A stretch of DNA of 64,000 bases from a virus (IMGVR_UViG_3300028103_000009); one strand, 5' to 3'. Positions 31,559 through 50,119 are shown, numbered from the stretch's first letter. The notes: a model not told the origin generated them from the sequence alone. A program made the numbers and translations.

Positions 31559-32602
31559 GATAGTCCGCTAGCCAAAAGGCCGCAAACATTAGTCCAATAG
31601 TCAAGGCAGTGATCACACTGATCCAACGCACATCCTGTTCATCGGGCAGCTTGTACCAAAACTCATAGGCCGCATCATAGACCCAGCCTTCAGGCGGATC
31701 TAGGGGATCATATAAGTGTGGGTGGCTAGCGGGCGTGGGCTGGACACTGTATCTCCGACGATAGGCTTCACGATGCTCTTCAGCGGTCATAGGGGGTAGC
31801 AGTTCCTGTGCGAGGTCTGCGTTTAACTTATCAAGTGCTGTTTTCGGGTCCATGTCGTCCTCCTGCCCATCTCATAGCTAGTAGTAGCTGATCTGATCTA
31901 GAGCCGCCACGCACTTCTATGGGTTCTGTGCCCCAGACATGTGTGTTACGGCTGATCCAAAAGTTTCCAGGATGCGATTGGCACCACTGTATAAACTCAT
32001 GCCGTTCTAGACTGTTAGCAGGCCAACAGTAGCAGAGCCAACGATGCTCACCCAGATCCTTTACTCGTATTTTCATAGTCTTAGTATACACGATGCTGAC
32101 TTGTTTGTCAAGGCGCAGCCGCGCGATTTTTTTTTCGGCGAAGCAGCGCAAAAATTTAGCGCGAAGCGCACAGCGGTAAGATTTTTTAGCTTCTAGTAAG
32201 ACCAAAGTATTCCATAGCTAGCCAGCATACAACACAGACCGCCCCAATCTTGGCCATGAACATGGCGAATGCATTTAGATCGTTGTCCAGCTTATCGGGC
32301 ATGGGATACCAAGTATCTTCCTCCCTACTGTAGTAGTACTTACGACCTCTTATTTCCTCTATATCCATAATATTCTTCTCGTTCAATGACGGCTACTGCT
32401 CCCTCGCACTCTAGCAAAAACTGTGTTTCTAAGGTGTTGCGCGGCACTAGTATGCGTGTCCTATTTAGATGCACTTCGTAGTGTAGACCATACCTCTCTG
32501 CGAAGCGTAGAGCACGCTCTAGACTGGGATCCGAAGTGTAGACAGCATATTCTCTATAGGGCATGATTGTATATAGCTTAAATAACCTAATGGAGGCAAA
32601 AA

Positions 32603-32782
32603 ATGACAGAAACACACAAGAGAACCATAGCTAGAGCTGTGATATGGAGAGTGATAGCTACCTGTGTAACAGCCATATGGGCAGGATGGTCAGGAGCGAT
32701 CTGGGCCAACATAGTGCTGACAGCGTTACATTATGTGCATGAAAGACTATGGCTAAGAGTCAGCTGGGGAAGGCAGATCTAG
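32603..32782 (+). CDS. second DUF2061-like membrane protein (missing from the ORF track)
   Basis: GGAGG RBS; MTETHKRTIARAVIWR...HYVHERLWLRVSWGRQI*. Confidence 0.65.
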   Translation: MTETHKRTIARAVIWRVIATCVTAIWAGWSGAIWANIVLTALHYVHERLWLRVSWGRQI

Positions 32783-32923
32783 AGATCACTGCAGGATCAT
32801 GACCGCGATGATGACTAGGAACACTAGCAGCCACAGTGTATAAGATATTAGGAAATGGATGTCTATGCGCATCTGTTACTTATCGAGTTGACAACCTAGA
32901 CCATAAGATAGTATCATATAACT

Positions 32924-33310
32924 ATGCGACAACAAACTAAAACTTGTGCGATGTGTCTAGTGGAAAAGCCAGAATCGGCTTTTGGCAGAGACGGCGGTCG
33001 ACATGGGTATCTACGCTATGAATGCAGAGAATGCGCTAGACAGCAGAGTCGAACTCTAAGAGCTATTAAAAGGTCAGCAAAGCCGCCCGAGAAAGATCAT
33101 CGCTGTGCTATCTGTCTAAGAAACTATGATGAAATGCAGGGTCACAGTCTGCGTAGAAAAAACTGGGTCTGCGATCATGATCACGAAACAGGCCTATTTA
33201 GAGGTTGGCTATGCCATAAATGCAACATGGGCTTGGGAAATCTAGCAGACGATGTAGAACGGTTACAGCGAGCTATCAAGTATATAGAACAGAGTAGAAA
33301 AGGGTCCTAG
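32924..33310 (+). CDS. endonuclease VII-like protein
   Basis: CAIC, DHDHETGLFRGWLCHKCN. Confidence 0.85.
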   Translation: MRQQTKTCAMCLVEKPESAFGRDGGRHGYLRYECRECARQQSRTLRAIKRSAKPPEKDHRCAICLRNYDEMQGHSLRRKNWVCDHDHETGLFRGWLCHKCNMGLGNLADDVERLQRAIKYIEQSRKGS

Positions 33311-34195
33311 CGGGATAAAATTTTGGCCGCGCAAAAAATTTGGGTGGAGTACTTTTCTTTTCAGGGTGGTGATTTGCTACCCCTGTTGCAAAAATACAAC
33401 ACTGTACGCACTATAGCCCCCCACCCCCATCGGCCGAACCTTCACCGACCGAGACCTCAACACCGATCCGTCATGCCGGGTCTCTTCTGGTCGTCTCTGA
33501 GGTGCCCTGAACAGATCCTTTCTGCTGCGCCCGACCAAGCAGGGATCTGATCCGTCAACTGATAAGGCGGTCTCGGGTCCCAGGGCGCATCTCTACGATC
33601 CCTAACAGCGCAGCCCGCAGCACAGCTAGCGGCTAGCGTTACGGATAGCAGTCTTAGCAGCATCTGCATATGTGTCTAGCCCCTGTTCTTGTTCTGTGCA
33701 TTCCCACGCAGCGATCTGCAGCAGGCTACGGCCATCGCAGCCGTCCTTATAGGGCAGTGCTGCCAGCACAGCTTCAGCTTGTCCTAGGCTTTGGCAGTTC
33801 CATAGTATGTCTATGATCTCGCGCTGCCTATGTGTGAGTCCTGTGATCTGTATCATAGTCTTAGTATAGCTCCAATAGCATAGATAGTCAATAGTCCCGC
33901 GTTCACAGCTACCAAGTTCCAATCGCGTACGGTTAGACTCCAGTATAGGTACAGGACGCTGCCTAGGTTCAGCAGCAGGATGTTCAAGGGATCCTGTCCC
34001 AGTGCAGTTGCCGCAGCACCCGCTAGGGTACATATGAGCGCCAAGTGTTTGGCCGCAGCAGCGATCATAGCAAGAGTGTGGCTGCGAATACCACGGGGGG
34101 CGCAAAGATCATCGCAACGGCTAAGAGTGTCTGCATGAGTAGTCCTTGTTGTCATGTCCATATTATATGCTCGTAGACCCAAACTGTCAACCACG

Positions 34196-34369
34196 TTATG
34201 CTGCCGCGAACAGAGCGCGGAACTGGCTCATCACGTTGTGGAAACTACGCAGCTCTGAGATGGTGAACTCTTCAGTGTTGTTCTCGATGTAGATCAGGGT
34301 TTCCAGCACGGGCAGCTGACCCAAGCGTTCCTGTATGCCTGCTATGACTTTGAGATCTTGATTGATCAT
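34196..34369 (-). CDS. early hypothetical protein (missing from the ORF track)
   Basis: Own promoter and AGGAGCGA RBS; MINQDLKVIAGIQERLGQL...RALFAAA*. Confidence 0.6.
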   Translation of the reverse strand: MINQDLKVIAGIQERLGQLPVLETLIYIENNTEEFTISELRSFHNVMSQFRALFAAA

Positions 34370-34678
34370 CATTCGCTCCTTTGTTAATATGTGTGTAGTA
34401 TACTACCGTTCGCCCAAACTGTCAACCAGTCGGGCTGTTGCAGAATTGCCACATCTTGAACTGATCCCCGCGCAGCCCCATCAAGATTCCTTCGTAGTCC
34501 CTGTAAGAGCAGCAGGCCCAAATCTCGCGAGGTTCGTAGCGGTATGTGCCGTAGCCTTGACCCCAATCGTATTCACGTGGAGTGTTGTGCTGTGTGACTA
34601 TCCTACGGGCCGTGCTGGCTCGCTTGTAGTACTTTTCCATACGGCCCGAGCGGACCTCGTAGACGATCCAACCTGACA

Positions 34679-34951
34679 TCAGTCCTCGACCCTAGACAGC
34701 ATGTTTGCGGGAACCCTGTAGCGACCAAAGGCTGTGTTAACGATACAGTTCTTGATCGCGACCTTTTCCACGGTGCCCACCATCAAACGTCCGGTGCGGC
34801 TGCTGGTGAATGAGATCTTGTCCCCGGCCATGAGGTTGATGGTAGCCATCTTTGACAGCTTGGTGCGCCGCTGTTTGATCAGATCGATCATTTCAGAGGT
34901 ATCCTCGAGTGTGGCGTCCCTGAGGATGAAATCACGGATGTCTGTGCGCAT
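34679..34951 (-). CDS. early hypothetical protein (SH3/KOW-like C-terminal half)
   Basis: AGGAGCA RBS; GDKISF...GTVEKV...YRVPANML. Confidence 0.6.
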   Translation of the reverse strand: MRTDIRDFILRDATLEDTSEMIDLIKQRRTKLSKMATINLMAGDKISFTSSRTGRLMVGTVEKVAIKNCIVNTAFGRYRVPANMLSRVED

Positions 34952-35430
34952 AGTTGCTCCTTTGTGTGTCAGTATGTGTATTGTACTGCCAAACTGCGAA
35001 AAGGTCAACCGATTTAGGTGTTGTTTTTTTGCAACAGTAGATCGCCACCCTCGGCCCGATCAACGATGAATTTAACCGTGTCCTTGAAGCGGCTGCGGAT
35101 CTCTCGCTGTAGTCCCTCAGCTGTAGAGCTCTGTCCTACGAACTGCTCTGTGTCCTTGCGATAGGCATAGAGCTGGCCTTGATGCTGCTCGATACGGATC
35201 TGGATCAGCTCGGGTTCGGCACTCTCATCGCTGTCCTCGGTGATCTCCCGCTCTAATTTCTCGCGTAATTTACGAAGGTCTGCGGGCTTGATGCCTAGAT
35301 CCTTGAGCACTTCGCCGAGGATCATACGGAAGAACACACGCTCTACGAAGCGGCCCAGAAGGAATCCCAGGATGAATACCGTGAATAGAATTAAGATCAG
35401 TTCCATGAATTATTTACTCCTAAGAGAGAT

Positions 35431-35465
35431 AAAAAAAGGGCGGATGCATCGAGTACACCCGCCCT
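35431..35465 (-). terminator. Rho-independent terminator
   Basis: Minus strand GGGCGGGTGTA-CTCGA-TGCATCCGCCC-TTTTTTT. Confidence 0.75.
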
Positions 35466-35491
35466 GTGCCTATTACCGGGAGCGAATCGGA

Positions 35492-35797
35492 TTAGGCAGT
35501 AACAGCTTCACGTGTCTCGACCTTAGCTGCAGGCGCAGCAAGGGTGACGCCGTTCTTCTTGGCTACGTAAGCGATGGCAGCTTCCACTGCAGGCTTACCT
35601 GTGCCATAACCTGTAGAGTACAGGTGCTGAGCGATCTCAGCCTTGGTCATCTCGTTAGGAAGGTTGATCAAGTCAACGTCCTTGTGACCATTCTTTGCGA
35701 GGATCTTGATTCGCATCGAGTCATTTGCGAAACGGATCTTAGTCTTACCATTCAGCGTCGAAACGCCAGCTACGGAGAACTTCTTTTCAGTTGCCAT
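35492..35797 (-). CDS. early hypothetical protein
   Basis: Promoter at about 35880; KIRFAND motif; followed by a conserved hairpin and terminator. Confidence 0.7.
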   Translation of the reverse strand: MATEKKFSVAGVSTLNGKTKIRFANDSMRIKILAKNGHKDVDLINLPNEMTKAEIAQHLYSTGYGTGKPAVEAAIAYVAKKNGVTLAAPAAKVETREAVTA

Positions 35798-36369
35798 TTT
35801 AATGTGCCTTTCTGTGTGTGTTTAAAAGTATACCAACCCTATTTGGTATGCTACTAATATAGCATAGCCAATCCATACTGTCAACCATTCGGTTTACCAA
35901 AATCTCCTAGTTTGGTGACCCGAATAGTCACAGCTTCCTTCTCATCTAGAGCAGCGATGAACTCGTCGTCATAGATAAGATCCTGCATGGCCAGATCGAT
36001 CATCTGCTCGACCCTAGCCTCGTCCGCTGTGCCCTCTCCGGCACAAAGGACTTCAAACTTGAACTCAAAGGTTCGCTTCATTTTCCCAAAACTCCTTGCG
36101 TAGCATGAACATCGTGTATGCTTCTTTGTTTAGGTATATACTCGACTTTTCTGCATCCCAAGCCCAAACCGGCTGTGTGCCGTCGAAGTATTCTGGGCGA
36201 GCGCAGAACAGTTCTCCGCTGGCGCCAAACTGTTGCCAAAGCCAGTTGCGGGCGCGGACCCATTGCTTGACACGGATCACACGCCCTTGCCCTGTGTAGC
36301 CAGTGAACTCGACCCTGTGACTAAAGCGTTCATGCCCGTCATAGCGTCGGTCCAACTTGACCACATTCA

Positions 36370-36993
36370 TCACAGCGGCTGCTCCTTGGCTTCGGCACCC
36401 TCACGGATCCACTGTGTGAGCTCTTCCTCATTCTCACGCTCATACTCTTCCATGCACTCGCTGATGCCAAAGCACTCATCCAAGTCCTCAGGAATCTCAT
36501 CGCGGACCTGTTTGCTGGACATCTCGCTCAGGTCATAGTTGTCTTCACAGCCATCTTCAAAGACGCCAGCGAAGCACATGCCGGGCTCATAATACATGGC
36601 TCGCACTTCATAGCCCTGCTCGGTCAGTTCTTGGTAAACGCCCACTGGAGGAGCCCAAGCACTGTCAAAGCCCACGCTCATGCTAGTGCCATCCTCGCTG
36701 ACGTCTGCAGGGTTGCAGTCATCGCCACCCACATCCCACTTGGTGCCCCAACGGCTGGTCTGGAAACTATACCAATCAGCATGTCCATACTTCTCAAGGT
36801 TGGACTTCTGCTGTGCTTCGTGGGCCTCACGCTTGTCCTCGCCCATGAAGCCTGACACTGTGTCAGTGAGCTCTTTAGGAGTAGGAATCACATGCTGGCA
36901 AAACTCTCCACGATTGAATGCGTCTGCGAGAGCACGGATTTTCTCAGGGTCCTTGTGGCTGATTTCCACATAGTTGTTGCACCAGTTTGGCAT
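36370..36993 (-). CDS. DUF1281/YubB ferredoxin-like domain protein
   Basis: MPNWCNN, WGTKWD, FDSAWAPP and YYEPG motifs. Confidence 0.75.
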   Translation of the reverse strand: MPNWCNNYVEISHKDPEKIRALADAFNRGEFCQHVIPTPKELTDTVSGFMGEDKREAHEAQQKSNLEKYGHADWYSFQTSRWGTKWDVGGDDCNPADVSEDGTSMSVGFDSAWAPPVGVYQELTEQGYEVRAMYYEPGMCFAGVFEDGCEDNYDLSEMSSKQVRDEIPEDLDECFGISECMEEYERENEEELTQWIREGAEAKEQPL

Positions 36994-37716
36994 AGGTTCG
37001 CTCCTTAAGTTAAGTTAGTATTATACATCCAAAATCAGTCAAAGTCAACTGAACTCACTTCAACACCGTCTTCGATCTCTGTGTATAGATCGTAGATCTT
37101 ACTCTGGATGATCTTCTTCTGGCCGGCTCTGATCGGGAGGGCCATGGCCAGTTCCTCGATCTGATCCAAGAGTCCATCAATCGCTTGTAGATCATGACCA
37201 ACTGCATTAAAATCTCTCATATCGCTCTCCTAAGTGTATGTGTATTATACACTCAGCGTTTCAAAATGTCAACCAAATGTTGATTGGCCAAGTTCTGGTC
37301 TACCCGATCCACGAACCTCTGCTCGATCTCACGTGAGGCTCGATCGGCGATCTGGCTCACGGTCCTTAGGATCTTAGCCTGGGCCATCGCGGTCGTTTCC
37401 GGGGCACTCAGGGCATCCAGAGCGCGGCGTAGATAGTCCAGTTCCTCGGGCTTGATCACTTGTAGGCCTCTGCATTCTGGATCATCATCGCGCCACAGCC
37501 CATGATCATCAATCCCACGGTAGAAACCAAGGCACCCAGCAAAAGACCGGAGTTGTCCAAGCTCTGCTCAATGCCGCCCACACCGAAGATCGTTACGAGC
37601 AGTCCTACGATAAAGCAGAACATTCCGGATTTTTCCATTGATGACTGTGTCATTGATTCGCTCCTAAGTTGTTTAGTATGTGTATTATACGACCAAAATA
37701 CCAATCTGTCAACCGA

Positions 37717-37974
37717 TCAGCGCCAATCTTTTTTGTCGCCGTAGCGTTCGTTGTAGTCGTAGCCAGCCATGTATTCGGCCACGCTCTCAGGATCCGTAAC
37801 CTCAACGCGGGGACCTGACTCGCCGCCAACTCCACCGTAGTGCGGCCGACGAGCCCGGCCGTAGTAAGAGTCTGCTGAGCCACGATCGTAGAGGCAACCG
37901 TGTTCTGAGCGCAGGAACTGCCAGCCCTTGAGGGCACGGACCACACGCTCTTGTTCTGAAATCTCTGGATACAT
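37717..37974 (-). CDS. early hypothetical protein
   Basis: Own promoter and RBS; HGCLYDRGSADSYYGR. Confidence 0.65.
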   Translation of the reverse strand: MYPEISEQERVVRALKGWQFLRSEHGCLYDRGSADSYYGRARRPHYGGVGGESGPRVEVTDPESVAEYMAGYDYNERYGDKKDWR

Positions 37975-39503
37975 TCTTCGCTCCTTTTATCTAACTATGA
38001 TGCTAGTATAGCACCAAACGTCCAAACTGTCAACCAAAATCCTTTAGCAGTCAGGGTCAAAATCGTGCCACTCCTGCATCTCGTCGGGTTGACCGTCGTA
38101 ATCCGCATCAGAATCGCTGCTTAGGATTCGTTGGACTTCTTCTGGGGATACACCTAGCGTTTCGCTGATGGTTAGGATCGTGCCTTCGTCCTGGCCAAAA
38201 TCATCACCCATATCGTGGGCCATGCTCATCACTTCCAGTTCCAGATTTGCAAAGTATCCCATAACTCGCTCTCCTTAGTATGCCTACAGTATAGCACCAA
38301 AAATCCAAACTGTCAACCAAAATCTGCAGAAAAGAAAAAGGTGTGGCTTTTATGCCACACCCGCCAGTTCCATAGCGTAGCGTTCCCAGTAATCGTCGCT
38401 GTCCTCAAACTCTTCTACGAGATCGTCGTATTCATCGATGATCTGCACGTATTCACCGCGCAGCTGGTAACGATACACATGATCGCCGTTTACGACCACG
38501 TCCCCTGATCTACGGCCCCCTACGAACTCGATCTGCTCACCATCGATGCTGTAGATCGTGCTGTTGTCGGTATACTTGAGATGGATATACATGGGCTTGC
38601 TCCTTTGTTTACCCGTGTAATGTAGCAGCTATAGCCCGAGCTGTCAACCAATCTTTTTGCAGGGCTGGTATGCTGTACACGCATAGCTAGCCCCGGTCAA
38701 TTCGCTGCAGAATTACCTTCGGGGTTTAAGAAGAGCCTGGCTCTCCTTGCGCAGCCTGCCCGCTTCCTTGTACATACGGTCAGCATCCTCAGCTAGGGCC
38801 TTAGATCGTTCCTGTGATAGTTTGCTGCCCCCAAACTCACGATCCACGTAGTACTGGATTAACCTATGCTTGATCATAGTAGGCAGGTCCATACCATAAT
38901 CTTCCGGACAAACGAAACGGACAGGGCAACGGCCCCATCCGCCATATTCTAGGAACTCTGCGTAGTAGCGCCTATGATCTTTATTGTAAGCGTCGAAGGC
39001 CACTAAGGGCCTTGCGTAGAACTCTAGTTTACTCATTAACTGTTTACAGTTGAGTAAGGACTCAACTCATCCTCTATTAGGTCAGGACCACAGCCGTCCT
39101 CATCATCGAGGCTGTTGCTAGCGAGCCAGTCATGGACCATGCTCACAGGCACTCCAAGGGTCTCACTGATCATCCTAGGGCTAAGGCCTTCGATAAACAG
39201 TTGCTCGATCTCGTAAGCGATCTGATCTAGTCTGCTCATCGTGCCATCTCCTGGGAAGTTGTCTTAACCTTATCAACACCATGATCTAGCATACGAGCTA
39301 CGCCAGAGAATCCGACTTGCCCGAACACTATACCAGCTACAAAAACCACGACATATTTCAACATCTTGGTGCTCCTTTCTGTGTGTCAGTATCTATATTA
39401 TACGATCAATCTATCAATCTGTCAAGACCACTTACACGCATACGTGTAGCAGCGGGGCCTAGGGTACTGTGGCATTTTAGCCACAGCCCCTGGCACTCCC
39501 AAA

Positions 39504-40706
39504 TCAGGCTACCTCTTTCTCGTAGATCACAGTCTGGCCAAAGGGTGACTCAGCCTGTGTGTTTCCTTTAACGATAAAGATAGTATCGCAGTAGTCTTCC
39601 TCACCCCAACTACCGCAGGGGTAACCGTCCGTAAACATGATAAACTTCTTGGGCTGGATGTTCTGCTCACGCATGAACTCCCAGTTGGCTTCGAACATAG
39701 TTCCACCACCGCCCTGAGGCTCGTAGTCTACCAAGTCTTCGACGTTGTCGTGAGTGATAGTCTTGTGGTTATAGATCTCTGTGTCAAAGCACCACAGGTT
39801 GATGCTGAAGTCCTCATACTGATCCATGATACCCTTGATCTCGCTCAAGAATACAGTTGCATCCTCGTGCCCAATACTGCCTGACATATCCATAGAGATA
39901 GCGATGTCGATAGTAGTGGCTTCCTTCATGCCTGGAAGCACCGCACCTGAGTGCATACTCTTGCGGTTAGGGCGGGTGAAGGAGTAGTCGTTGCGGATGA
40001 TGCTTTGGATCTCTTGACGCACCAACTCACGCCAGCTGATCTTAGGCTCAGTCATGTCCTTGATCATACGCATGATACCTGCAGGAGTCTTACCTGCACC
40101 AGCGGCCGCGGCACTCTGGATCATGGCCTCTTTGATCTCGTCTTTGATGCGTTGTGCATCCTCTTTGGAGATGCTAGGGCGACCATCCTTTTGATCTTCC
40201 TTGCCGTCCTTGCCGCCGCCATCGCCTTCCTTGATGTGCTCGTCGAGAAGGTCACCAAGTTGCTTCAAGAGCTGGTCCATAGGAATCTTCTCTGCCTTGG
40301 CATACAGATCATCGTAGATCTCTTCCCAGGCCATACCACGATACTTTGGATCGTAGCAGATCTTAACCTCAGTGATCTTCTCGCCGATACGCTCGTCGAT
40401 AAGGATCTGATTAACAGCGAAGTCCTGTGCGATGTTAGACAGTTGACGATCGCGGCTACCAACACGACCAAAGTGGTCAAAGATGCAGTGGCAGATCTCA
40501 TGTGCAAACAGGAACTCTAGTTTCTTGATAGAAAGTTTCTCGATGAACTTCTTGTTATACATGAAGTCACGACCGTTAGTTGCCGCAGTCGGGCACCAGT
40601 CGCTGGCATCGAGCAGACGCATACGAGTAGCCATGTTGCCGAAGAACGGCTCCTTGAGTAGCAGTCCTACTCGGGCAGTTGTCAGTTTCTCTACGATCGG
40701 GTCCAT
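39504..40706 (-). CDS. metallopeptidase-like (HExxH) plus VWA domain protein (DUF2201-like)
   Basis: TAATNG, AHEICH, DMSGS MIDAS, GGGGT and FTDG motifs. Confidence 0.85.
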   Translation of the reverse strand: MDPIVEKLTTARVGLLLKEPFFGNMATRMRLLDASDWCPTAATNGRDFMYNKKFIEKLSIKKLEFLFAHEICHCIFDHFGRVGSRDRQLSNIAQDFAVNQILIDERIGEKITEVKICYDPKYRGMAWEEIYDDLYAKAEKIPMDQLLKQLGDLLDEHIKEGDGGGKDGKEDQKDGRPSISKEDAQRIKDEIKEAMIQSAAAAGAGKTPAGIMRMIKDMTEPKISWRELVRQEIQSIIRNDYSFTRPNRKSMHSGAVLPGMKEATTIDIAISMDMSGSIGHEDATVFLSEIKGIMDQYEDFSINLWCFDTEIYNHKTITHDNVEDLVDYEPQGGGGTMFEANWEFMREQNIQPKKFIMFTDGYPCGSWGEEDYCDTIFIVKGNTQAESPFGQTVIYEKEVA

Positions 40707-40818
40707 AACACGCTCCTTCTTAGTATGCTTCTATTATATGCTCTGTTTATTTATTTGTCAACCGAAAAAGGTGGGCGGGCGACCCTGAGAAGTCCCCGCC
40801 CTTTGGCGCTGGAGAGGT

Positions 40819-41901
40819 CTAGTTCTCCATGGCGCTCAAAACATACTTGCCAAAACGCTTATGGAACTCATCGAAGCTCTTCATCTTCGAAGCATCCAAA
40901 GGCAAGTCATAGTTGGTGAGCGCGGTCTTAGCACCCATAACTACCAGCTCAGTAGGGAAGTTATCCATCATGTAGCGGAAGAAGTTATCGGCACCCTCGT
41001 CCCAGTTCTTGACCTTCTTGTCTGCACGATCCTTGAGCTCGTAGCAGAGGCTAACGGTCAAAGAATACATCGCTGACACTTCCTTGATCTGGAGGTCCTT
41101 GACCTTGCCGTCGAGGATGTCACCAGCCTTAGGCATCTTGCCTGCGATCTTACGGTGAGCCATAAACTTCATGCTAAGGCCGTCACCAATAGCACCTGCG
41201 ACCAGAGTGTGCAGGGTATCTTGATCAGTGTCATCGTCCTTGAGCAGATCGCTCACGAACACCCAAGAACGCGGAGTTGCGAAGCTCTTGCTAGGGCTCT
41301 TAGGATCGAAGTCGTAGAGGTCCTGCTTGGCAAAGCCCACATAACCTACCACATCAGGGTGGACTTTGTTGAGCGTAGCCCAGTCTTGGAAGTCATCGAA
41401 GTCTACCTTCATCTCCAAGTGGACGAAGCGGTTAGCCAACGGAGCAGGCATACGGTAGGTAACACCACGGTCACCTTCACGGTTACCAGCGGCGACTACG
41501 TCAACGCCTTTGGGCAGGACATAGGTGCCAACACGGCGATTAAGGATCAACTGATAGGCCGCGGCCTGAACAGCAGGAGGAGCGGAGTTAAGCTCGTCCA
41601 AGAAGATCACAGCAGTGGACTCAGGATCCACAGGCAGTTCTGCGGGCGGTGCCCACACCATCTTGCCTACATCTGCATTGTAATAGGGGATACCCTTGAT
41701 GTCAGTGGGCTCCCAAAGAGCTAGGCGGACGTCGATGACCTCACGGTTGAGCTCATCAGCGATCTGCTTAACGACATCGGACTTACCAATGCCTGGAGGG
41801 CCCCACAGGAACACAGGGCGACGCACAGTCAGCGACTTGCGGATTGCCTTCTTGGCACCCTTAGGGCCAACTTGGCGAATAGAGATATCTTGCTTTGACA
41901 T
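40819..41901 (-). CDS. MoxR-like AAA+ ATPase
   Basis: GPPGIGKS, FLDELN, AAGN, PLANRF and TPRSW motifs. Confidence 0.88.
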   Translation of the reverse strand: MSKQDISIRQVGPKGAKKAIRKSLTVRRPVFLWGPPGIGKSDVVKQIADELNREVIDVRLALWEPTDIKGIPYYNADVGKMVWAPPAELPVDPESTAVIFLDELNSAPPAVQAAAYQLILNRRVGTYVLPKGVDVVAAGNREGDRGVTYRMPAPLANRFVHLEMKVDFDDFQDWATLNKVHPDVVGYVGFAKQDLYDFDPKSPSKSFATPRSWVFVSDLLKDDDTDQDTLHTLVAGAIGDGLSMKFMAHRKIAGKMPKAGDILDGKVKDLQIKEVSAMYSLTVSLCYELKDRADKKVKNWDEGADNFFRYMMDNFPTELVVMGAKTALTNYDLPLDASKMKSFDEFHKRFGKYVLSAMEN

Positions 41902-41973
41902 ACTAGACCTTTCTTTCTCAGGGTTAAAAACGCTCTCTCAGTATCATTATTGTAGCACCAAGTGAGCTCTTTG

Positions 41974-42609
41974 TCAACCAACTATTTTGACGTAGTTCAG
42001 TTGTGTTGTATTATCGCCACGGAGTGCCTTGACCTTGGCCTTGACCCGCACACTGCCCTCAAGGGCTTTGCCGAACCAGAAGTCCACGAAGCTCTCACCC
42101 ATACGGGCGTTGACGCGATACTTGTCGAAGTTAGGGTTATACCTTGCGCTGACCACAGTGATCTCCCCGACGATGGTATCACCTACAGCAGCCTTGAGCT
42201 GCTCAGAGGCATAGATCTCTCGCTTGAGTTCCGTACGGGCCTGATCGCGCACAGCCACGCTGGGTAGGCAGCTGATAACAGCGAACTCGTACATGTTTTT
42301 ACCTGTGAACTCTTCCATAGCAGCGATCTTCATAGCCGTGGTTTGGAAATCGTTCATCTTACCTGTGAGCGCCAACAGTGTGTAGGATTTGAAGTGATCC
42401 CGGGCGCTGCGGCCAGCAGCATAATCGGCCTCAGTGATCTGGCTGAAATCGCCCTCGCGGAGCCATTGCTTGACCATAGCTTTGTTGGCTCGTTTATCAA
42501 CTACGTAGCCTTCGTCAGTGTAACGGCCTTTGTCCTCTTTGAGGTACTCACCGTTGATGCGTTGGGCAGCGGCTGCGGCACCCCAAACTTGATCTGCTGT
42601 AAACTGCAT
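41974..42609 (-). CDS. early hypothetical protein
   Basis: Own promoter and AGGAGCGA RBS; possible OB-like C-terminus. Confidence 0.65.
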   Translation of the reverse strand: MQFTADQVWGAAAAAQRINGEYLKEDKGRYTDEGYVVDKRANKAMVKQWLREGDFSQITEADYAAGRSARDHFKSYTLLALTGKMNDFQTTAMKIAAMEEFTGKNMYEFAVISCLPSVAVRDQARTELKREIYASEQLKAAVGDTIVGEITVVSARYNPNFDKYRVNARMGESFVDFWFGKALEGSVRVKAKVKALRGDNTTQLNYVKIVG

Positions 42610-42740
42610 AGCTCGCTCCTATGTCCTAACTATGCCTCTATTATACGGTATTTACTCAGGGCTGTCAACCAAAAAAACTGTTGTATTTTTGCAACAGGCG
42701 GGAGTGCCGGCGAGGTGTGGCTTTTATGCAACACAGGGCC

Positions 42741-42768
42741 AAAAAGAAAGGGCCCCTAAAGGACCCTT
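42741..42768 (-). terminator. Rho-independent terminator
   Basis: Minus strand AAGGGTCC-TTTAG-GGGCCCTT-TCTTTTT. Confidence 0.7.
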
Positions 42769-42820
42769 CCCAAAACCCGCCCCGGGAGCGAATCGGCTTG
42801 GATTTTGAACCGATAAGCTC

Positions 42821-43093
42821 TTAGAGCGTAATGCCTAGAGCCTTAGCCTTGTAGCCAAGAGCAACGATCTCACGGCTTGGCTTGCCCATGACGTATTCGG
42901 TAACAGTCACGCCATTACCAGCTGTACGGCTGTTAGCGTAAACAGCATAACCATGCTGACGAATACGGCTTGCTTCTGCAGCCAGGTTACCCACGCCAAA
43001 ACGCTTCTCAGCTTGGCTTTGGGTTAGAGCAGCACCATTGTAGAGTGCATTGAAAACCTTGTAGGTCTTCGTATCTTTGTTGATGAACTTCAT
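42821..43093 (-). CDS. small putative winged-HTH DNA-binding protein
   Basis: LTQSQAEKRFGVGNLAAEASRIRQHGYAVY pattern. Confidence 0.5.
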   Translation of the reverse strand: MKFINKDTKTYKVFNALYNGAALTQSQAEKRFGVGNLAAEASRIRQHGYAVYANSRTAGNGVTVTEYVMGKPSREIVALGYKAKALGITL

Positions 43094-43358
43094 AGTTTGC
43101 CTTTTCCTTTAAAGTTAATATAGCTGTAGTTCAACAGCGTACCTTTATATTACAACAACCTTACCGCAAAGGTCAATGGCTTATTTTGCCGTTTTAACAC
43201 GCACCTGGGGCACTGCCATCAAAATAGCAGCGGCCAACCACGTCCAAAAGGTGAACGGGATCTCATGCGTAGCACCAAACAGCGTGTTCCACGCCCAAAT
43301 AACGGCCAGTGGACCAATCGCGATAAAGAATATAATCAGAGCTAGAAGCCCTACGAGT

Positions 43359-43598
43359 TTAAACAGAGTGTTCATGATCTTCATCCTTACACATTATTTT
43401 AGCCAGCTCAGCTTCGAGCTCCTTCTTGTTCTGGCGCTTGCGACGCAGAGCTGTACCACCCATGTAGACCCTTGAGTAGTGCTCTGCGCAGTAGCTCTTG
43501 CCTGGCATCACGGCACTCAGGCAAGTGAACAGATCTGTGTCACGGACTGGGTCCTTGTCGGGCCCAATCCATTGACATGTTTTGGGTGTCCATTCCAT
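43359..43598 (-). CDS. small Cys/His protein resembling the GcrA C-terminal domain
   Basis: TCQWIG...FTC...GKSYCAEH..RVY compared with GcrA TCRWPIG...FC...PYCxxH..AY. Confidence 0.45.
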   Translation of the reverse strand: MEWTPKTCQWIGPDKDPVRDTDLFTCLSAVMPGKSYCAEHYSRVYMGGTALRRKRQNKKELEAELAKIMCKDEDHEHSV

Positions 43599-43599
43599 G

Positions 43600-44670
43600 T
43601 TAACCTCGCTTCATGACAGTGACTTCAGCCATGCTCTGCCAGTTAGTAGGAAAGCTCTTGCGCAGGTCTGCGACTTTGAGCACCGTACGCAGGCTCAGCT
43701 CACGCATCTTGCCGCGATTCTCGATGATGTAGTCTACGACTTCATCGCGTTGTACATCCTCGAACTCATAGGTATCCAACATGCCGTCAGTGACGATCTG
43801 CTTGATACGAAGCACCTTTTCACGATCTGTATCCATTTGGAGATCGATGTAGTGACAGCGTGACTCCAAAGCCGCCAAGTGATCCTGCAGTTTCTTAGAA
43901 CGCACATTCTCAAACTTGATGTTAGTGATAAAGATAGCACCTGCCTTGAACTCAAACTTGTCCGGCACTCCCTCAGAGCGCAGGATACGGCTGTCAGTGT
44001 TCCACGAGATAGTACGCTTCTTAGAGCTATCCAGAGCAGCCTTCAAGATGTTAAGGCTAAGATCATCTAACAGCACAGAGTCGCAGTCATCGAACACGAT
44101 AACGTTGCCTTTTTCGCTGTAGTGATAGAGCTTGCTGTACAGACCCACGGCACTCATAGCACCCTTGACGATCTCGTATTTGGGCTTGCGATTGCCCAGG
44201 GTATCAAAGAGATCGTCTCGCGACAGTACTTCTTCGACACCAAAGCTCTTGCCCACACCTGGAGGGCCAGTGACGATCATAGCTCGCACGGTGCCCTCTT
44301 TGACTGCTTTGGTCATGTCCTTGAGTACTTGGAAGCGGCCACGCAGTCGCTCTACGATCTGCTCATCAGTCTCGTGTGCGACTACTTCATCCGAAACCTT
44401 GATCTGCTCTAGGCTCTTGTCACCTGCGGGCGTAGCAGGCACTGCCCCAGAGACTACCACGTAGCTTTGTGCTGATGCACAACGGATGCGGATTGAACGA
44501 TCTGGAATACCAGCATTCTTTGGGTATACTGAGCCACCCGCAACAGTAACATAACCGCCATTGGCGCCTTCTTTGTATTGTTCCACGAGCTCGAAACGGT
44601 TACCCGCCATGGACACTTCAGCGCCACGGATCTTATAGGTACCTTCGCGCATCTCGATGATTGCTGGCAT
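43600..44670 (-). CDS. P-loop AAA ATPase
   Basis: GPPGVGKS, VFDDCD, FITN and ALESRC motifs. Confidence 0.8.
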   Translation of the reverse strand: MPAIIEMREGTYKIRGAEVSMAGNRFELVEQYKEGANGGYVTVAGGSVYPKNAGIPDRSIRIRCASAQSYVVVSGAVPATPAGDKSLEQIKVSDEVVAHETDEQIVERLRGRFQVLKDMTKAVKEGTVRAMIVTGPPGVGKSFGVEEVLSRDDLFDTLGNRKPKYEIVKGAMSAVGLYSKLYHYSEKGNVIVFDDCDSVLLDDLSLNILKAALDSSKKRTISWNTDSRILRSEGVPDKFEFKAGAIFITNIKFENVRSKKLQDHLAALESRCHYIDLQMDTDREKVLRIKQIVTDGMLDTYEFEDVQRDEVVDYIIENRGKMRELSLRTVLKVADLRKSFPTNWQSMAEVTVMKRG

Positions 44671-45183
44671 AAGTCTTCGCTCCTATGTTGTTTAAAATCG
44701 TATTATAACAGGGCCCGAAGGCCCTGTCAACCTATTTGTTAAATACCCTGGAAAGCATCAAGGGCTTTCTGTGCGTCTGCGTCTAGCATAGCACGATCTT
44801 CGGCACTCTGACGCTCGCGCTCTACAGTCTTGCGGTAGTCTTCCAGCTCTGCCTTTTTGGCTTCCATAGCAGGCCACACTACATCGCTGGGGTTAAGGTA
44901 AGGACCCGTGTAGTCCACCTTGTCTTCTTTAAGGGTAATCTCTCCGGAACGGATGCCTTCAAAGACCATGCCCCACGTGGGTTGCTGAGGACGGCCTGTG
45001 GGCCCAAACAGTTCTACTGCTTTAGCCTGCACCTTTTCACGTGCGATCTCGTTGAGACGACGTACGAAATACTCGCGTTGCGTTGCTTCCATTTTGCGCT
45101 CCTGTGTGTGTTAAACAAGTCTGTATTATACAGGGTTTTGGGTACCCTGTCAACCCCAGAAAAAACCCTTAGAGTCCAAAGGG

Positions 45184-45621
45184 TTATGCTGCTTGCCTAT
45201 CCTCGCAGTACTCGTAGAAGCGACCAATGGGCCCATCGAACAACGCAGCATTGGTCTCGCTCATGGTGAGCCCAAACATGTTGCAGCCACGATCGCGGAC
45301 CTGTACGTGTATGATGTTATCGCGCTCGTAGACGTGATACTCATAGTCCTGGCCGCAGTCTGCAGCAGTCACGGGGTAGAGATAGAACTGCCCGGGGCCA
45401 TCTTTGAAGTGTGCGACCAGTTGCGCAGCCAAACAGCCCATACCGTTGAACACCACACGATCTTCACCACGTAGGCCGTTGACTAGTGTACCCTGTGTGA
45501 GGAAACGTGCTAGCTCAGCACCGTGCCCGCTGGGGTAGCCGTCGTACTGGCGATAGAGATTGATGATGGCACCCTCAGTAATGTCGCCATCGTAGACAAA
45601 AGTAAGACAACGTGTACCCAT
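45184..45621 (-). CDS. conserved phage early hypothetical protein
   Basis: MGTR...YRQYDGYPSGHG; own promoter and RBS. Confidence 0.7.
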   Translation of the reverse strand: MGTRCLTFVYDGDITEGAIINLYRQYDGYPSGHGAELARFLTQGTLVNGLRGEDRVVFNGMGCLAAQLVAHFKDGPGQFYLYPVTAADCGQDYEYHVYERDNIIHVQVRDRGCNMFGLTMSETNAALFDGPIGRFYEYCEDRQAA

Positions 45622-46060
45622 AGTTCGCTCCTGTGTGTTAAGTGTGTATTATAGCAGAGGAGCTGCACCTTGTCAACCCCTCTGCTGCTGTTAGCTTATT
45701 CCATGCTAGCAAGCTCGTCTTCTTGCATGCCTTGCTCTGTAAAACGCACTTCGTAGCCTAGTGCTGTGCTAATAGCATCTTCAAACGCTGTGTCTGTGTA
45801 AATGTCCCACGTGCTGTTGTGTGTAACATAAATGCTCTTATAGTCATCTTCTTCTGTTACACTAATCGCAGTCACACGCACTTGTCTGCCTGCTTCACAG
45901 CCCCACAAGCCGTCACCAGCTGTAGTAACTGTAAAGTCGCAGTCGTATTCACGTGTTAACATGCCGTCTTCGTTGTGCTGTGCTGTAAGTGTTAGCATAT
46001 CGCGCTCCTTGTTAAACATGTGTGTATTATACACTCTCTAGCCAAAATGTCAACCGTTTT

Positions 46061-46381
46061 TTAGTCGCCGCGCACATCTGTGTTGAGCGTGGGCTTAATT
46101 TCGCGCCGGATGCGTACCTCTTCTTTATGTGCCGCAGCTTTGCCTCGGATCACAGCATGTACTATGATAGTGATGTCATCCTTGCTCGCGACATCTCGCA
46201 GAGCGCAGCACAGGGCCCAATCTTTGTTCTCTGAATGGGCACGATAGAAGTGCTTGGCAGCGCGAGCACGTACACTCTTATTAATAGTAGTCTCAGTCTT
46301 AGCTGTAACGCCGATGTAGTTGCCCGCAGGTACCTGCAGCTCGTATACGATGTGATTCCGGTCTGTACGTTTGGCCCGCAT
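46061..46381 (-). CDS. GIY-YIG-like small protein
   Basis: IVYEL...YIGVT...R...H, E...PTLN. Confidence 0.55.
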   Translation of the reverse strand: MRAKRTDRNHIVYELQVPAGNYIGVTAKTETTINKSVRARAAKHFYRAHSENKDWALCCALRDVASKDDITIIVHAVIRGKAAAHKEEVRIRREIKPTLNTDVRGD

Positions 46382-46462
46382 TGCTCGCTCCTTCATTATG
46401 CATATAGTATAGCACCCCTAGCCCAATCTGTCAACCAAAATCGCCAACTCGTTTAAAAAAAG

Positions 46463-46483
46463 TTATCCACAGGGTTATCCACA
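46463..46483 (+). promoter_or_regulatory. two tandem DnaA boxes
   Basis: TTATCCACA at 46463-46471 and 46475-46483. Confidence 0.65.
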
Positions 46484-46747
46484 GTCTAGGAGATTCCCCG
46501 GAGCTAGCTCACGTGCTGCGCATACCTCGACCCATGACCCCGGTCAATTCGCAGCACATGCAGCCTCGGGGTCAAGGTCCTCGCAGGGCCCAGGCAACTA
46601 GTACAGCGAGCGCAGCTAGAACTCCCACGATGACCGCACACTGCTGCACGGGCCACAACTCCGCGAACCAACGTTTGACATCGTCTAGGGGGTCCATGGG
46701 ATTAGGAGATCTCTTCATAGTTGCTGCTGTAGCTGCTGTTGTTGTGA

Positions 46748-46824
46748 TGGTGGGCCCACTTGGATTCGAACCAAGGACCAATGGATTATGAGTCCACTGC
46801 TCTAACCGTCTGAGCTATAGGCCC
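46748..46824 (-). tRNA. tRNA with CAT anticodon, most likely tRNA-Ile2 (lysidine type)
   Basis: GGGCCTA/TGGGCCC acceptor stem, TAGCTCAG..GGTTAGAGC D-arm, CTCATAA anticodon loop, GGTTCGAATCC T-arm and encoded CCA; overall similar to ileX-type tRNAs. Confidence 0.9.
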
Positions 46825-46854
46825 CCCGGAAAACTCTGCTGCTGTAGCTGCTGT

Positions 46855-47154
46855 TTATATAAGTCCCGTGTTCCGGGCTTCGCGTAGATCTTCTTCTACT
46901 TCTTCAGTCATGCGATCCCTCATGTCATGCTGCTTGACCATCTTGTAGAGAGGATCTAGCTGCTTAGTAAAGATCTCAGGACTTGCCTGTGCTGCACGAT
47001 CTAGATCATACGTTGAGGGATAATGACGTAGTACACTGCGAGCCTGGGCACGTATAGTCTTGGGCACTCTAGGAGTCTTACGTGGATCCAGCAAATCCTG
47101 CATGAATCGTTCGGCCATCCTGACCGCACGGTATCGTTCATCTGGAAGTGTCAT
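46855..47154 (-). CDS. conserved phage hypothetical protein
   Basis: MTLPDERYRA...LRHYP motif; GAGGAG RBS. Confidence 0.65.
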   Translation of the reverse strand: MTLPDERYRAVRMAERFMQDLLDPRKTPRVPKTIRAQARSVLRHYPSTYDLDRAAQASPEIFTKQLDPLYKMVKQHDMRDRMTEEVEEDLREARNTGLI

Positions 47155-49005
47155 GGGTTCTCCTCTACTTTGGCTAAGCAAACGTTTCTTGCGCATGTGT
47201 ATATTATATGTGATCACACAAGGTCTGTCAAGTCCAAAATATAGTATCCTTAGCAGCGGGGCCTAGCTATCTAGAGTAGTAGCGACGAGGCCTGCGACTA
47301 ATCATGAACAGTGTACGAGCCGTGTGCCCACGACTGCACATCTCAAAGAAGCCACGTGCTAGTGTATAGTTAGAGGTCTGTATGACAGTGAGATTCCAAG
47401 AATCGCGTACAGTATATACAGGACGGCCGTCTTGATATTCAGTGATGAGTCTAACTTTCTGCATACTAGTATTTACAGTGTGTGTATCCTTAGCAGCGGG
47501 GCCTATGACTGCACCATGGGACGGCCATCAAGAGTGGTCAGATCGTGGTAGAATAATGGTGGAATCACGCCGTTTGAGCAAGGTAGAGATCCTGCCTAAA
47601 AGGTAAAAGATTTTTTGGCTTCGGTGGTCAGAGAGGCTATGCTAAATGGTCACACTTTTTCACACAAATCCACACTTTTCTGCACTCTCTTGCACCCTAG
47701 ACCCCCTGTAGCGATGTCTATACGCAGACCTCCGATCAGTAAATCACACTTTTCTGCATTTACTGACCCGTATGCGCATACGCACATGACCCAGTGTTGT
47801 TGTGCGCAAGCACACAACATCTTGCAGCGGGGCCTGCTAGTCTGCAGCTTCTATGAAGTCTATGGTATCTACGGTATCTTCTACTATACAGTAAGTTGCT
47901 TCTACTATAGTTCCGTCCTGTAGTCTACACTGTTCCATTTCCCAGTTGCCTATGTCTACTCGTTCTACACGATCTTTAAAGCCCAAGTGCGAGTTACGAG
48001 CACGTTGGGCTATTCGGGCTCCTGCCCGATTCTTATAGTAGCGCAGTCTACGACCCGTGTCCTTGTGTACTAGATAGTAGACTGACATCATCGTGCTAGT
48101 ATCCAAATCCAGCCTATGAGTAAACCCAAGTTAAAGCTGATCACACTCAATAATAAGAGTGCTAACACGTACCAAACATCATCTTCTACTACAGTACGAA
48201 CTAGTTTATTCATATGCATATTTAAGCCTCTAGCGGCCCGCAAGCCCTGATTCTACGTTAAATAGCAGTATGTACACTCTAGACTATGATCTTGGCCAGC
48301 TGGAACGTCTACACGACTTCATAGACTCAGGCCAGCCCATACGCATCATACACACGCTCATACGCGATGAAGTCAATCCAGATCAACTGGACTTTTTTGG
48401 TGATCGCTACATAGTGCTCATAGAATGCTCTGAGGTCATGTACACATTCCTATTACTCTTATAACGTGATACATCGCAGATCGCTTGTGTGTCTAAGACT
48501 TACTAGTACGGTTGCCTATGATCAAGAAGCCATATGGGCTCGCGTACAACCCTTAGGCGGTCATCTAGAGTTTCGCGGGGACTGCATAGACTTTTTCGTT
48601 CCAGAGAGATATCTAGCTTGGATACACTTACAGTATCCTGAGTTAACTCGTCAACAGCATTTGGATTTCTGCTAGAAACCCTTCGCGACCGCTGCCGCTT
48701 CGCGGCTATAAAAATTGCGCTAGGGCTTCGCCTAGTCAAAGTCTCTGCTCTGCATTTTTGGATTCTTGTGAACTAGGGTTAAATATGTATATGAGAATCA
48801 TATATCAACTCACTGATCCTGACTCTGAGCGACTAGCGTCTGTTAGAGCATTCGTCGCGGATCCCAACAACTCTATGATGCTCATGACTGAGCGTGTGGG
48901 CTCTAAAGATTTCTACAGTTTGGTAGCCATGCACAATGCTGATCATATGCAGGCAGTCATAGACACAGAGTTTCCCGGTTGGGGCACTTGGGTGGAGAGA
49001 GAATA

Positions 49006-49461
49006 ATGGCCATCACTACACGAAGCGATCTAGTCACTGCTGCTGCACAGGGATTCACACGACAAAGCGCAGTAGACGGTACCAGCGTTACTACCCTGCG
49101 ATTGAACCCTGTGAGCTATGGTATAGCCACTGCTGATGTTGCTGCCGCTGCTGCCACTGCCACCGTCACTGTACAGGTCGCTGCGGGCAGCACAGCTACC
49201 ACTGACACAGTCACAGGCATAGTCACTATCGCTGGACCACAAGGTCCACAGGGAGCCCCGGGCGAACAGGGTCCACGTGGCCTACCTGGACAGGATGCTG
49301 TGGGCAATACTATACCCGATGTCACATCAACGACACCACAGGTGCTTTATCACGATGAACGTGGCTACATACAGTGGTATGATGTGGGCGCAGACTTCAA
49401 AACACTAAAGAAACAGCTGACCCGTGACATATTAGTCGCGGGCATCATCTACGGAGCGTAA
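49006..49461 (+). CDS. collagen-repeat-containing protein (fibre-like)
   Basis: GPQGPQGAPGEQGPRGLPGQD. Confidence 0.65.
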   Translation: MAITTRSDLVTAAAQGFTRQSAVDGTSVTTLRLNPVSYGIATADVAAAAATATVTVQVAAGSTATTDTVTGIVTIAGPQGPQGAPGEQGPRGLPGQDAVGNTIPDVTSTTPQVLYHDERGYIQWYDVGADFKTLKKQLTRDILVAGIIYGA

Positions 49462-49469
49462 ATACACAT

Positions 49470-49880
49470 ATGATTGACCAACAACTATATCGCCAGCTAA
49501 GAGATCAGGGCCAGAACATCCAGCTTGATGCGCCCCCAGAACCCGACCATTCTAAGCCCATGGATCGCCGCACGATAGTAGAACAAGTGGGTCCTGTACA
49601 GGTCAATGGACAGTGGCATCTACAGTGGCAGACTAGAACTATCACTGCACAAGAACGAGTAAGTAGGCTCGCAGAAGACACCCTGGCCACACGCAGTCAA
49701 CGTGACAAGTTCCTTAGAGAAAGTGACGTCTATGTACTACCAGATCGCTGGGCACAGATGACCACACAGCAACAGCACTCTTGGACTGCATTCCGTCAGG
49801 CCCTGAGAGATCTACCTTCGCAGCCAGGATGGCCCTATGACATCACATGGCCCACACACCCTCGAGGCACCTACGCATGA
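49470..49880 (+). CDS. tail fibre assembly chaperone-like protein
   Basis: RDKFLRESD...WTAFRQALRDLPSQPGWP. Confidence 0.7.
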   Translation: MIDQQLYRQLRDQGQNIQLDAPPEPDHSKPMDRRTIVEQVGPVQVNGQWHLQWQTRTITAQERVSRLAEDTLATRSQRDKFLRESDVYVLPDRWAQMTTQQQHSWTAFRQALRDLPSQPGWPYDITWPTHPRGTYA

Positions 49881-50119
49881 AAATCAACGAAATCATCAGA
49901 GAATCACTAGTAGACGAAGAACCCGCGAGCAGAGACCTTTGCCTAAGCGGTAAGCCAGACTCGGCCCTAGGTGCTAGCCAACTGGCTTCATGCAAGAGCC
50001 AGGGCTATCGTAGCCGTGATGGGGGCAAGAGCCACAAGGTAGGCTCAGAGCGCATCAAGGTCCGAGGAAAACGTATCAAGGGCAAGAAATACGGCGGCCC
50101 CTTACCAGACTGGAGTTGA
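49877..50119 (+). CDS. small basic late protein
   Basis: MKINEIIRES N-terminus; ATGA overlap with the preceding gene. Confidence 0.55.
   Translation: MKINEIIRESLVDEEPASRDLCLSGKPDSALGASQLASCKSQGYRSRDGGKSHKVGSERIKVRGKRIKGKKYGGPLPDWS

Follow-up and report, generated by a model that had tools for sequence, protein, structure and literature searches.

Why should a large phage chromosome carry, on either side of its early genes and on opposite strands, a short array of DNA mini-hairpins of the d(GCGAAGC) class? The question is raised by IMGVR_UViG_3300028103_000009, a linear virus record of 147,329 bp, of which bases 79066-143065 (64,000 nt, hereafter the window, to which all coordinates refer) were analysed. 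The two arrays, element A (32137-32189, plus strand) and element B (48671-48735, minus strand), had been noticed in a reading of the window made without any comparison (the sequence-only reading), which took them for strand-specific priming or origin signals, DNA-transfer or packaging signals, or the ends of an invertible segment. Here, we describe the conservation and structure of the pair, which point to a strand-specific signal acting at the level of DNA, and weigh what such a signal might do; a role linked to replication is the one we tentatively favour.

The large terminase (TerL) encoded by the record shares at most 53% identity with those of cultured phages (PA5oct group, 53%; Sinorhizobium Phosso; Atu_ph07), and the related records, 68-280 kb long, are estimated to be 19-79% complete. 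On these grounds the window is assigned to an uncultured jumbo phage of the T4 superfamily, of which it represents a fragment, recovered from a river. Many riverine metagenomes and metatranscriptomes contain this stretch; the RNA evidence used below comes from four riverine metatranscriptomes, in the form of assembled contigs.

Elements A and B and their counterparts in related phages

The two elements each measure about 45-55 nt, and element A consists of two tandem units. The first opens with the mini-hairpin GC-GAA-GC (32138-32144), followed by AGCGC and an A5T3 tract, and the second comprises the hairpin GCGC-GAA-GCGC (32159-32169), AGCGG (32172-32176) and a T6 run (32182-32187). Element B, read on the minus strand, likewise has two units, namely the hairpin GGC-GAA-GCC (48732-48724) followed by AGCGC and an A/T tract, and the hairpin GCCGC-GAA-GCGGC (48706-48694) followed by AGCGG (48693-48689) and a degenerate tail. 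The sequence-only reading had quoted 32137-32176 and the reverse complement of 48689-48732 exactly and had described them as oppositely oriented and about 16.5 kb apart, which agrees with the measured 16.6 kb; the similarity between the two sites reaches slightly past its ends, to approximately 32137-32189 in A and 48735-48671 in B. Taken alone, GCGAAGC is not enriched in the window (nine occurrences against 6.35 expected). The composite half-unit GCGAAGC-N0-5-AGCG[C/G], in contrast, occurs four times against 0.04 expected, a count reached in 0 of 100 shuffles, and the whole record holds only these four half-units, one tandem pair per site. Rfam covariance models recovered only a tRNA-Met in the window and gave no match at E<=5 around A or B, and a blastn search with the A region and a consensus-like element against cultured-phage records returned no match. 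We take A and B to be two copies of one putative cis-acting DNA element.

Viral relatives were sought by pattern scans of IMG/VR contigs, and their flanks were compared open reading frame by open reading frame; loose scans returned mostly chance matches in high-GC coding repeats, which were filtered out by G+C content and context. The remaining contigs with one element or the other, about 25 distinct ones, place it without exception at two syntenic positions. At site A the element is flanked by the homologue of 29935-30369, with which the primase/helicase module ends, and by the early block at its 3' end, and at site B by the homologues of 47837-48675 and 49847-50119. A counterpart of A is found at its syntenic site in about 20 distinct contigs, and a counterpart of B, on the strand opposite to A, in six records other than the window (G001, G004, G005, G006, G007 and G009) and about nine further contigs. 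The inverted pair is present at both sites in all seven records that retain both flanks, with A and B separated by 16.6 kb in the window (G000), 18.0 kb in G001, 16.2 kb in G004, 16.9 kb in G005, 18.9 kb in G006, and 13.9 and 14.7 kb in the two members of a distant clade, G007 and G009, which keep the pair even though the proteins of that clade show only 33-68% identity. Over 500 nt around A and B, nucleotide matches to the relatives are confined to the element cores, with the exception of a single isolated match of 17 nt, probably due to chance. The composite motif has no further copy elsewhere in the related records. What the sequence-only reading had named in advance as decisive, namely whether relatives carry the motif at syntenic positions or comparable matches are scattered at random, has thus been settled in favour of the element.

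A scan of bacterial genomes for the motif yielded almost exclusively chance matches in coding sequence. In the alphaproteobacterial metagenome-assembled genomes L240 (5700-5800) and L248 (2420-2480), a similar tandem motif, TAGCG(CG)AAGCG(CG)GTAGCGCA, stands just after a gene end, and may be a cellular counterpart or a coincidence.

The geometry of the pair, with the same motif facing inward at both ends, is that of terminal inverted repeats, and A and B could on this basis be recombinase sites or the termini of an invertible or transposable segment, as the earlier reading had allowed. However, the orientation of the enclosed block relative to its flanks is constant, and no inverted early block was encountered among the seven records and about 25 contigs. 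Moreover, B is often down to one unit, the two sites have only about 20-30 degenerate bases in common, and no recombinase or transposase was found among the larger block genes scanned (HNH, ATPase and phrog_1250). Transposon ends were rejected in view of the outer edges, where no target-site duplication is visible. We regard an invertible or transposable segment as barely credible.

Mini-hairpin units, covariation and strand polarity

The arrays comprise one to four units per site (two to four at A, one or two at B), with a loop-to-loop period of mostly 25-28 nt. Each unit is built from a mini-hairpin, a spacer of 0-4 nt, the word AGCG(C/G) (often within CAGCGCA), which follows nearly every hairpin on its 3' side, and an A/T tract frequently ending in a T run. 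Across 70 distinct aligned units, the closing C:G pair and the G and A of the loop are invariant, the loop reading GAA in 65 units and GGA in the other five; in a wider count of 88 hairpins from the array regions, GCA (10) and GTA (3) loops occur as well. The stems, 2-5 bp long and mostly of 2-4 bp, with only two or three pairs in many units, are of diverse types (GGC/GCC, GCGC/GCGC, GCCGC/GCGGC, GCTGC/GCAGC, CTAC/GTAG, TTAC/GTAA and CCC/GGG), and the third pair alone is CG in 32 units, UA in 16, GC in eight and AU in two. Paired cells make up 78.9% across the 70 units against 63.9% in shuffles, and the covariation score is 0.373 against 0.135 in shuffles, none of 500 scoring as high and slid controls giving 0.05-0.14; the units entering these figures were chosen to have a complementary second pair, so that this one column is inflated. 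By covariation among natural variants, the elements are shown to form the predicted hairpins.

In 36 regions, all 88 C-GNA-G hairpins lie on one strand and none on the other. The 3' end of the hairpin strand points towards the early block from both sides, and this polarity is the same in the approximately 25 contigs, even where the local gene orientation changes. In the clade of the window, each element follows the end of one gene and precedes the promoter of the next, and is read by local transcription in its TTC-loop sense; the sense of local transcription is the opposite in L010, L160 and L192, and L157 has its element flanked by late promoters that diverge from it. As compared across these contigs, the polarity of the element is shown to track the genome map and not local transcription.

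Together, these properties point to a signal that would act at the DNA level and in a strand-specific manner, because many of the stems, with their two or three pairs, are stable only as DNA, because a GNA triloop closed by C:G is the rule of the DNA mini-hairpin, and because the polarity is fixed with respect to the early block whereas the orientation relative to neighbouring genes varies. The DNA hairpin d(GCGAAGC) melts at 76.5 C, compared with 39 C for r(GCGAAAGC), and hairpins with a TTC loop are of ordinary stability (PMC13037366). The natural roles of the mini-hairpin are still debated (PMC13037366).

The same units could be read as duplex DNA, with a phage regulator or nucleoid-type protein binding the AGCGCA-A/T words and marking or looping the early domain. 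The AGCG(C/G) word and its A/T tract recur every 26-28 nt or so, which corresponds to 2.5 helical turns, A4T4-type tracts bend DNA, and a related word, GCGCAAAAAATTT, stands on the same strand 1.15 kb inside A, in a separate conserved element of about 85 nt with which the factor is perhaps shared, for instance for early-gene shut-off or insulation. Against such sites, the arms vary inside one array (GGC, GCGC, GCCGC, CTAC, CCC) around the fixed, asymmetric centre GAA, and this is the opposite of what is expected of a dimer reading half-sites on duplex DNA. No DNA-binding domain was detected in the conserved small neighbouring proteins by Pfam and PHROGs scans, which gave nothing useful for these genes in general. 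Binding to the duplex therefore seems to us an improbable basis for the conservation of the arrays.

The early block and the edges of the elements

In the early block (32083-47231, minus strand), small genes and canonical terminators accompany about 20 sigma-70 promoters of consensus or near-consensus sequence, and RNA-contig depth is greater over 33.4-47.1 kb, which is weak evidence. The G+C content of the block is about 50%, against 40-43% in the flanks. The rise from approximately 0.40-0.43 to 0.50 extends over 31-52 kb, and since it runs about 3 kb past B, the step in composition does not coincide exactly with the elements. Cumulative GC skew, which had been suggested as a check, tracks gene orientation and is not readable as replication direction. 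To the left of A, plus-strand modules encode UvsX, helicases, a Toprim primase (24569-25573) and a DnaB-type helicase (27156-28571), the last two in a module about 4-8 kb from A.

The sequence-only reading had the elements bracketing the whole early region, near the two strand-switch zones. The strong minus-strand promoters at 32111-47231 bear this out in the main, but about 1.4 kb of late-type genes, with TAAATA-N5-ATG starts at 47462, 48211 and 48259, separate the last early promoter from B, and one sigma-70 promoter (32111-32083, minus strand) lies just outside A, from where it reads outward into gene 32066-31831. Nearness to the strand switches holds only loosely, as each element is situated inside a short co-directional run of genes: A within a minus-strand run, between gene 32186-32386 and the promoter at 32111, and B within a plus-strand run, between gene 48466-48675 and the late-type start at 48780. 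The latter (TAAATA-N5-ATG) and its first gene (48780-49006, plus strand) read outward, and fibre-like and fibre-assembly genes come next. The late-type start pattern TAAATA-N3-7-ATG is enriched, with 15 occurrences where 4.06 were expected, and the position of the sigma-70 promoter outside A is taken in most relatives by a late promoter (TAAATA) that reads outward.

This placement of A and B, each between a gene end and the next promoter of its run, would suit a transcriptional boundary, in which weak tandem or bidirectional terminators, roadblocks or 3'-end stabilisers separate the early block from late units. T runs do follow the hairpins on the 3' side of the hairpin strand, a terminator scan flags one hairpin per element, and one RNA run includes a contig that stops at 32118, just past A, which is weak evidence; in run X1, on the other hand, RNA contigs span both elements. 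A canonical intrinsic terminator is unlikely, considering that the stem of 2-5 bp is too short, the T run begins 9-11 nt beyond it, the folding z-score is about 0, and ordinary strong terminators, which the arrays do not resemble, are present elsewhere in this phage. There are also only two sites per 150-280 kb despite dozens of operon ends, and GNA triloops are weak in RNA. Furthermore, the flipped sense with respect to local transcription in the L010/L160/L192 clade, and the array of L157, where a terminator between divergent promoters would be superfluous, speak against this explanation, which we consider unlikely.

The outer-edge genes of both elements run outward, and this is the direction in which single-strand hairpin promoters of the phage N4 type would be expected to fire. 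The hairpin recognised by the virion RNA polymerase of N4 lies on the template strand and has a stem of 5-7 bp and a triloop of GGA or GAA (PMC13037366), and the early promoters of N4 thus resemble the elements in being DNA hairpins on one strand with the same triloops, those of N4 being recognised in single-stranded form. In contrast to N4, the early genes here have consensus sigma-70 promoters, and the outward genes have sigma-70 or TAAATA promoters of their own at a variable distance of 0-60 nt from the element, so that no fixed spacing to gene starts exists. Many stems have just 2-3 bp. The three giant proteins of the record, which covers about 40% of a genome, are fibre or virion proteins, and a search of them revealed no domain of a T7/N4-like RNA polymerase. 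The analogy with N4, drawn in the sequence-only reading, is accordingly weak, and a promoter function of this type appears very unlikely.

Just outside both arrays, paralogous genes for 2OG-Fe(II) oxygenases (PF13759) and other variable small genes have been inserted repeatedly, most of them reading outward (examples among others are G001 31836-32390 and 12287-12946, L086 7740-8893 and L165 353-949), and both elements appear to border hot spots of gene gain at their outer edges. L180 and L011 have another module as their left flank, with a gene for a giant virion protein, and the element nevertheless remains beside the early block. Both observations would fit arrays that control recombination or nucleases, Chi-like or exonuclease-stopping and polar, which limit degradation advancing from one side, or concentrate recombination at the borders of the early module and so favour its exchange as a cassette. 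Chi sites protecting linear DNA are polar signals arranged as an inverted pair, and the units contain GAAGCGG and AGCGG, which we take to be the Chi words of S. aureus and B. subtilis. A Chi-type word should nevertheless be fixed, whereas the words after the loop vary here (GCGG, GCAG, GCGC, GCC), and Chi leaves the covarying stems unexplained. Repetitive extragenic palindromic sequences (REPs), their mosaic arrangements (bacterial interspersed mosaic elements, BIMEs) and Chi are similar to the arrays in being short, intergenic, polar and GC-rich, and REPs form stem-loops and inverted pairs; they are, however, host elements present in hundreds of copies, without the GNA-triloop rule or a fixed pair around a gene block. 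The strong resistance of mini-hairpin DNA to exonucleases (PMC13037366) also counts for nuclease control, to which we nonetheless assign a rather slight probability.

Two further non-coding stretches near the elements are conserved. The partial match GCGCAAAAAATTT near 33329, which the sequence-only reading had mentioned alongside the arrays, is real, although it belongs to the separate element of about 85 nt already mentioned (33300-33385, plus strand). This element is conserved in sequence and not in structure: it lies 0.9-1.35 kb inside A in all six relatives searched, including G007 of the distant clade, retains the blocks GCCGCGCAAAAAATT, AGTACTT and GGTGGTGATTT, and has no consensus fold on either strand. 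Because a stop codon interrupts the apparent frame in one relative, the element is regarded as non-coding, and it may be an antisense promoter of the activator-box type directed into the early block. The second stretch (47640-47790, plus strand), about 0.9 kb inside B, is gene-free and conserved in all seven records. It contains three to four CACAC(A/T)3T direct repeats spaced by 10-11 bp and a CTATACGCA block, and its hairpin arms covary between clades (TCAGTAAA/TTTACTGA to GATCTAGA/TCTAGATC); it has neither an Rfam match nor a consensus RNA fold. It looks like a candidate iteron or regulatory region, and nothing comparable to its repeats was seen near A.

Several other features of the block may be recorded here. 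A gene for an endonuclease VII/HNH-like protein of 128 aa (32888-33310, plus strand) with its own near-consensus sigma-70 promoter lies on the opposite strand inside the minus-strand block; blastp comparison with the related loci gave no match to its product, and the gene probably represents the insertion of a mobile, free-standing endonuclease. In each of the four river metatranscriptomes, contigs connect 40133 with 40311, thereby omitting 177 nt in frame within a 400-aa gene of phrog_1314 ('HNH endonuclease'), which could reflect a strain variant or an intervening sequence. The tRNA-Met (CAT; 46748-46824, minus strand) is located near the upstream end of the block. Finally, the 11-mer GCAGCGGGGCC occurs in four copies, all on the plus strand (39449, 47253, 47493 and 47824), which in minus-strand view stand just upstream of early or late promoters; it may be linked to the arrays by a shared CAGCGG.

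A possible replication-linked role of the pair

Of the roles considered, we favour, with clearly less than even confidence, that of a replication-linked single-strand signal for priming, helicase loading or pausing, similar to the ssi sites of RSF1010. We favour it because of the covariation of the hairpins around an invariant GNA loop, the confinement of the hairpins to one strand, the polarity tied to the genome, and an anatomy like that of ssiA/ssiB and of G4-type origins. The strand-specific priming or origin function named in the sequence-only reading is, on the same grounds, the best-fitting of its suggestions, albeit unproven. The Toprim primase and DnaB-type helicase encoded by the phage itself near A, and the iteron-like repeats inside B, are likewise counted in its favour.

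Mechanistically, each element, a strand-specific tandem array of C:G-closed GNA triloop mini-hairpins of the d(GCGAAGC) class, would work while the hairpin strand is single-stranded, either upon passage of a fork or upon extrusion driven by supercoiling. The mini-hairpin would then exclude single-strand-binding protein from this strand, and the adjacent conserved word would be where the DnaG-type primase and the DnaB-type helicase of the phage itself enter or start; alternatively, the array may constitute a programmed pause. With the copies placed as mirror images, such that the 3' ends of the hairpin strands face the early block from either side, symmetric forks would meet the same signal, on the leading-strand template if they leave the block and on the lagging-strand template if they enter it. 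Polar sites in mirror symmetry match a process with the same symmetry about the block, for example fork movement out of it or into it, and not one-way packaging or injection. The DNA-transfer or packaging signal proposed earlier accordingly fares poorly, as a mirror pair is ill-suited to a motor working in one direction and the terminase gene is 30 kb distant from the pair. It is also possible, with a probability only slightly lower than that of the favoured role, that the mirrored arrays form a new class of polar replication signal in double-stranded jumbo phages, as fixed sites of priming, helicase loading or fork pausing which mark the early block as a replication domain of its own, possibly with the CACAC-repeat region inside B as its origin. 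This region could be an origin, but we treat it as a lead only.

The closest parallel is provided by RSF1010, in which ssiA and ssiB are two inverted repeats of about 40 nt on complementary strands, each forming a hairpin with a CCGAAGG mini-hairpin, and the primer starts about 5 nt 3' of the hairpin (PMC8567376). As in the phage, there is one copy per strand, a GAA mini-hairpin closed by C:G, and a conserved word a few nucleotides to its 3' side (PMC8567376, PMC13037366). The phage elements differ in being tandem arrays of one to four units with far shorter stems, and the primase of the phage is of the Toprim/DnaG type, as opposed to the RepB' type of RSF1010. A second parallel is offered by the complementary-strand origins of G4, St-1 and alpha3, where a cluster of hairpins on one strand includes a GCGAAAGC or GCGTTAGC mini-hairpin that has been proposed to exclude single-strand-binding protein and give access to DnaG-type primase (PMC13037366). 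Those origins, however, belong to single-stranded phages, occur once per genome and have 8-bp stems, whereas here a double-stranded jumbo phage carries mirrored copies of repeated units.

Several points weigh against a replication-linked role. Known ssi pairs lie about 100-200 bp from the origin, ssiA and ssiB of RSF1010 (IncQ) being side by side inside oriV next to the iterons, whereas the phage copies are 14-19 kb apart, and both sites would have to be exposed as single strands. An outward promoter adjoins the outer edge in about two thirds of the lineages, which is equally compatible with a transcriptional role. In addition to the one inflated column of the covariation count, nearest-neighbour folding of both strands is unremarkable (z from -0.85 to +0.87), as is to be expected of standard parameters, which miss the stability of d(GCGAAGC); the case for hairpins therefore rests on the covariation and on the published chemistry of the mini-hairpin. 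G.T and A.C mismatches, moreover, are equally frequent in the outer stem positions, and the active strand is not identified in this way.

Other systems share only parts of the arrangement. Tus-Ter resembles it solely in having two opposed sets of polar sites around a region of a chromosome; Ter sites are duplex protein-binding sites without hairpins, unlike the phage arrays, and we know of no Tus-like gene in this phage. The PeSL (promoter-plus-stem-loop) cassettes of T4-type phages are conserved intergenic motifs in plastic early regions (PMC2839356, PMC4122927), and many PeSL-like repeats are present in the early block described here. PeSLs are, however, numerous in each genome, combine an early promoter with a terminator and follow the direction of transcription, whereas the GNA arrays are two in number, promoterless and polar with respect to the genome. 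We found no description of the element in the literature, searches of which yielded only a general review of the mini-hairpin and the papers on PeSLs, and the pair apparently represents a previously undescribed single-strand DNA signal based on mini-hairpins.

The cis-acting DNA signals of environmental jumbo phages, including their replication origins, are nearly uncharted, and A and B provide a short, defined signal whose position, strand and mirror arrangement have been retained across a deep phage lineage amid divergent surroundings. In practical terms, the arrays offer a landmark that delimits the early module in metagenomic phage contigs. They are small enough for direct testing, with the primase and helicase genes of the phage in the same window, and the pair is a natural test case for the role of mini-hairpins in double-stranded genomes. 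Should the arrays prove to mark the early block as a replication domain of its own, ssi-type signals, a feature of small plasmids and of phages with single-stranded DNA, would extend to the organisation of the chromosome of a large double-stranded DNA virus.

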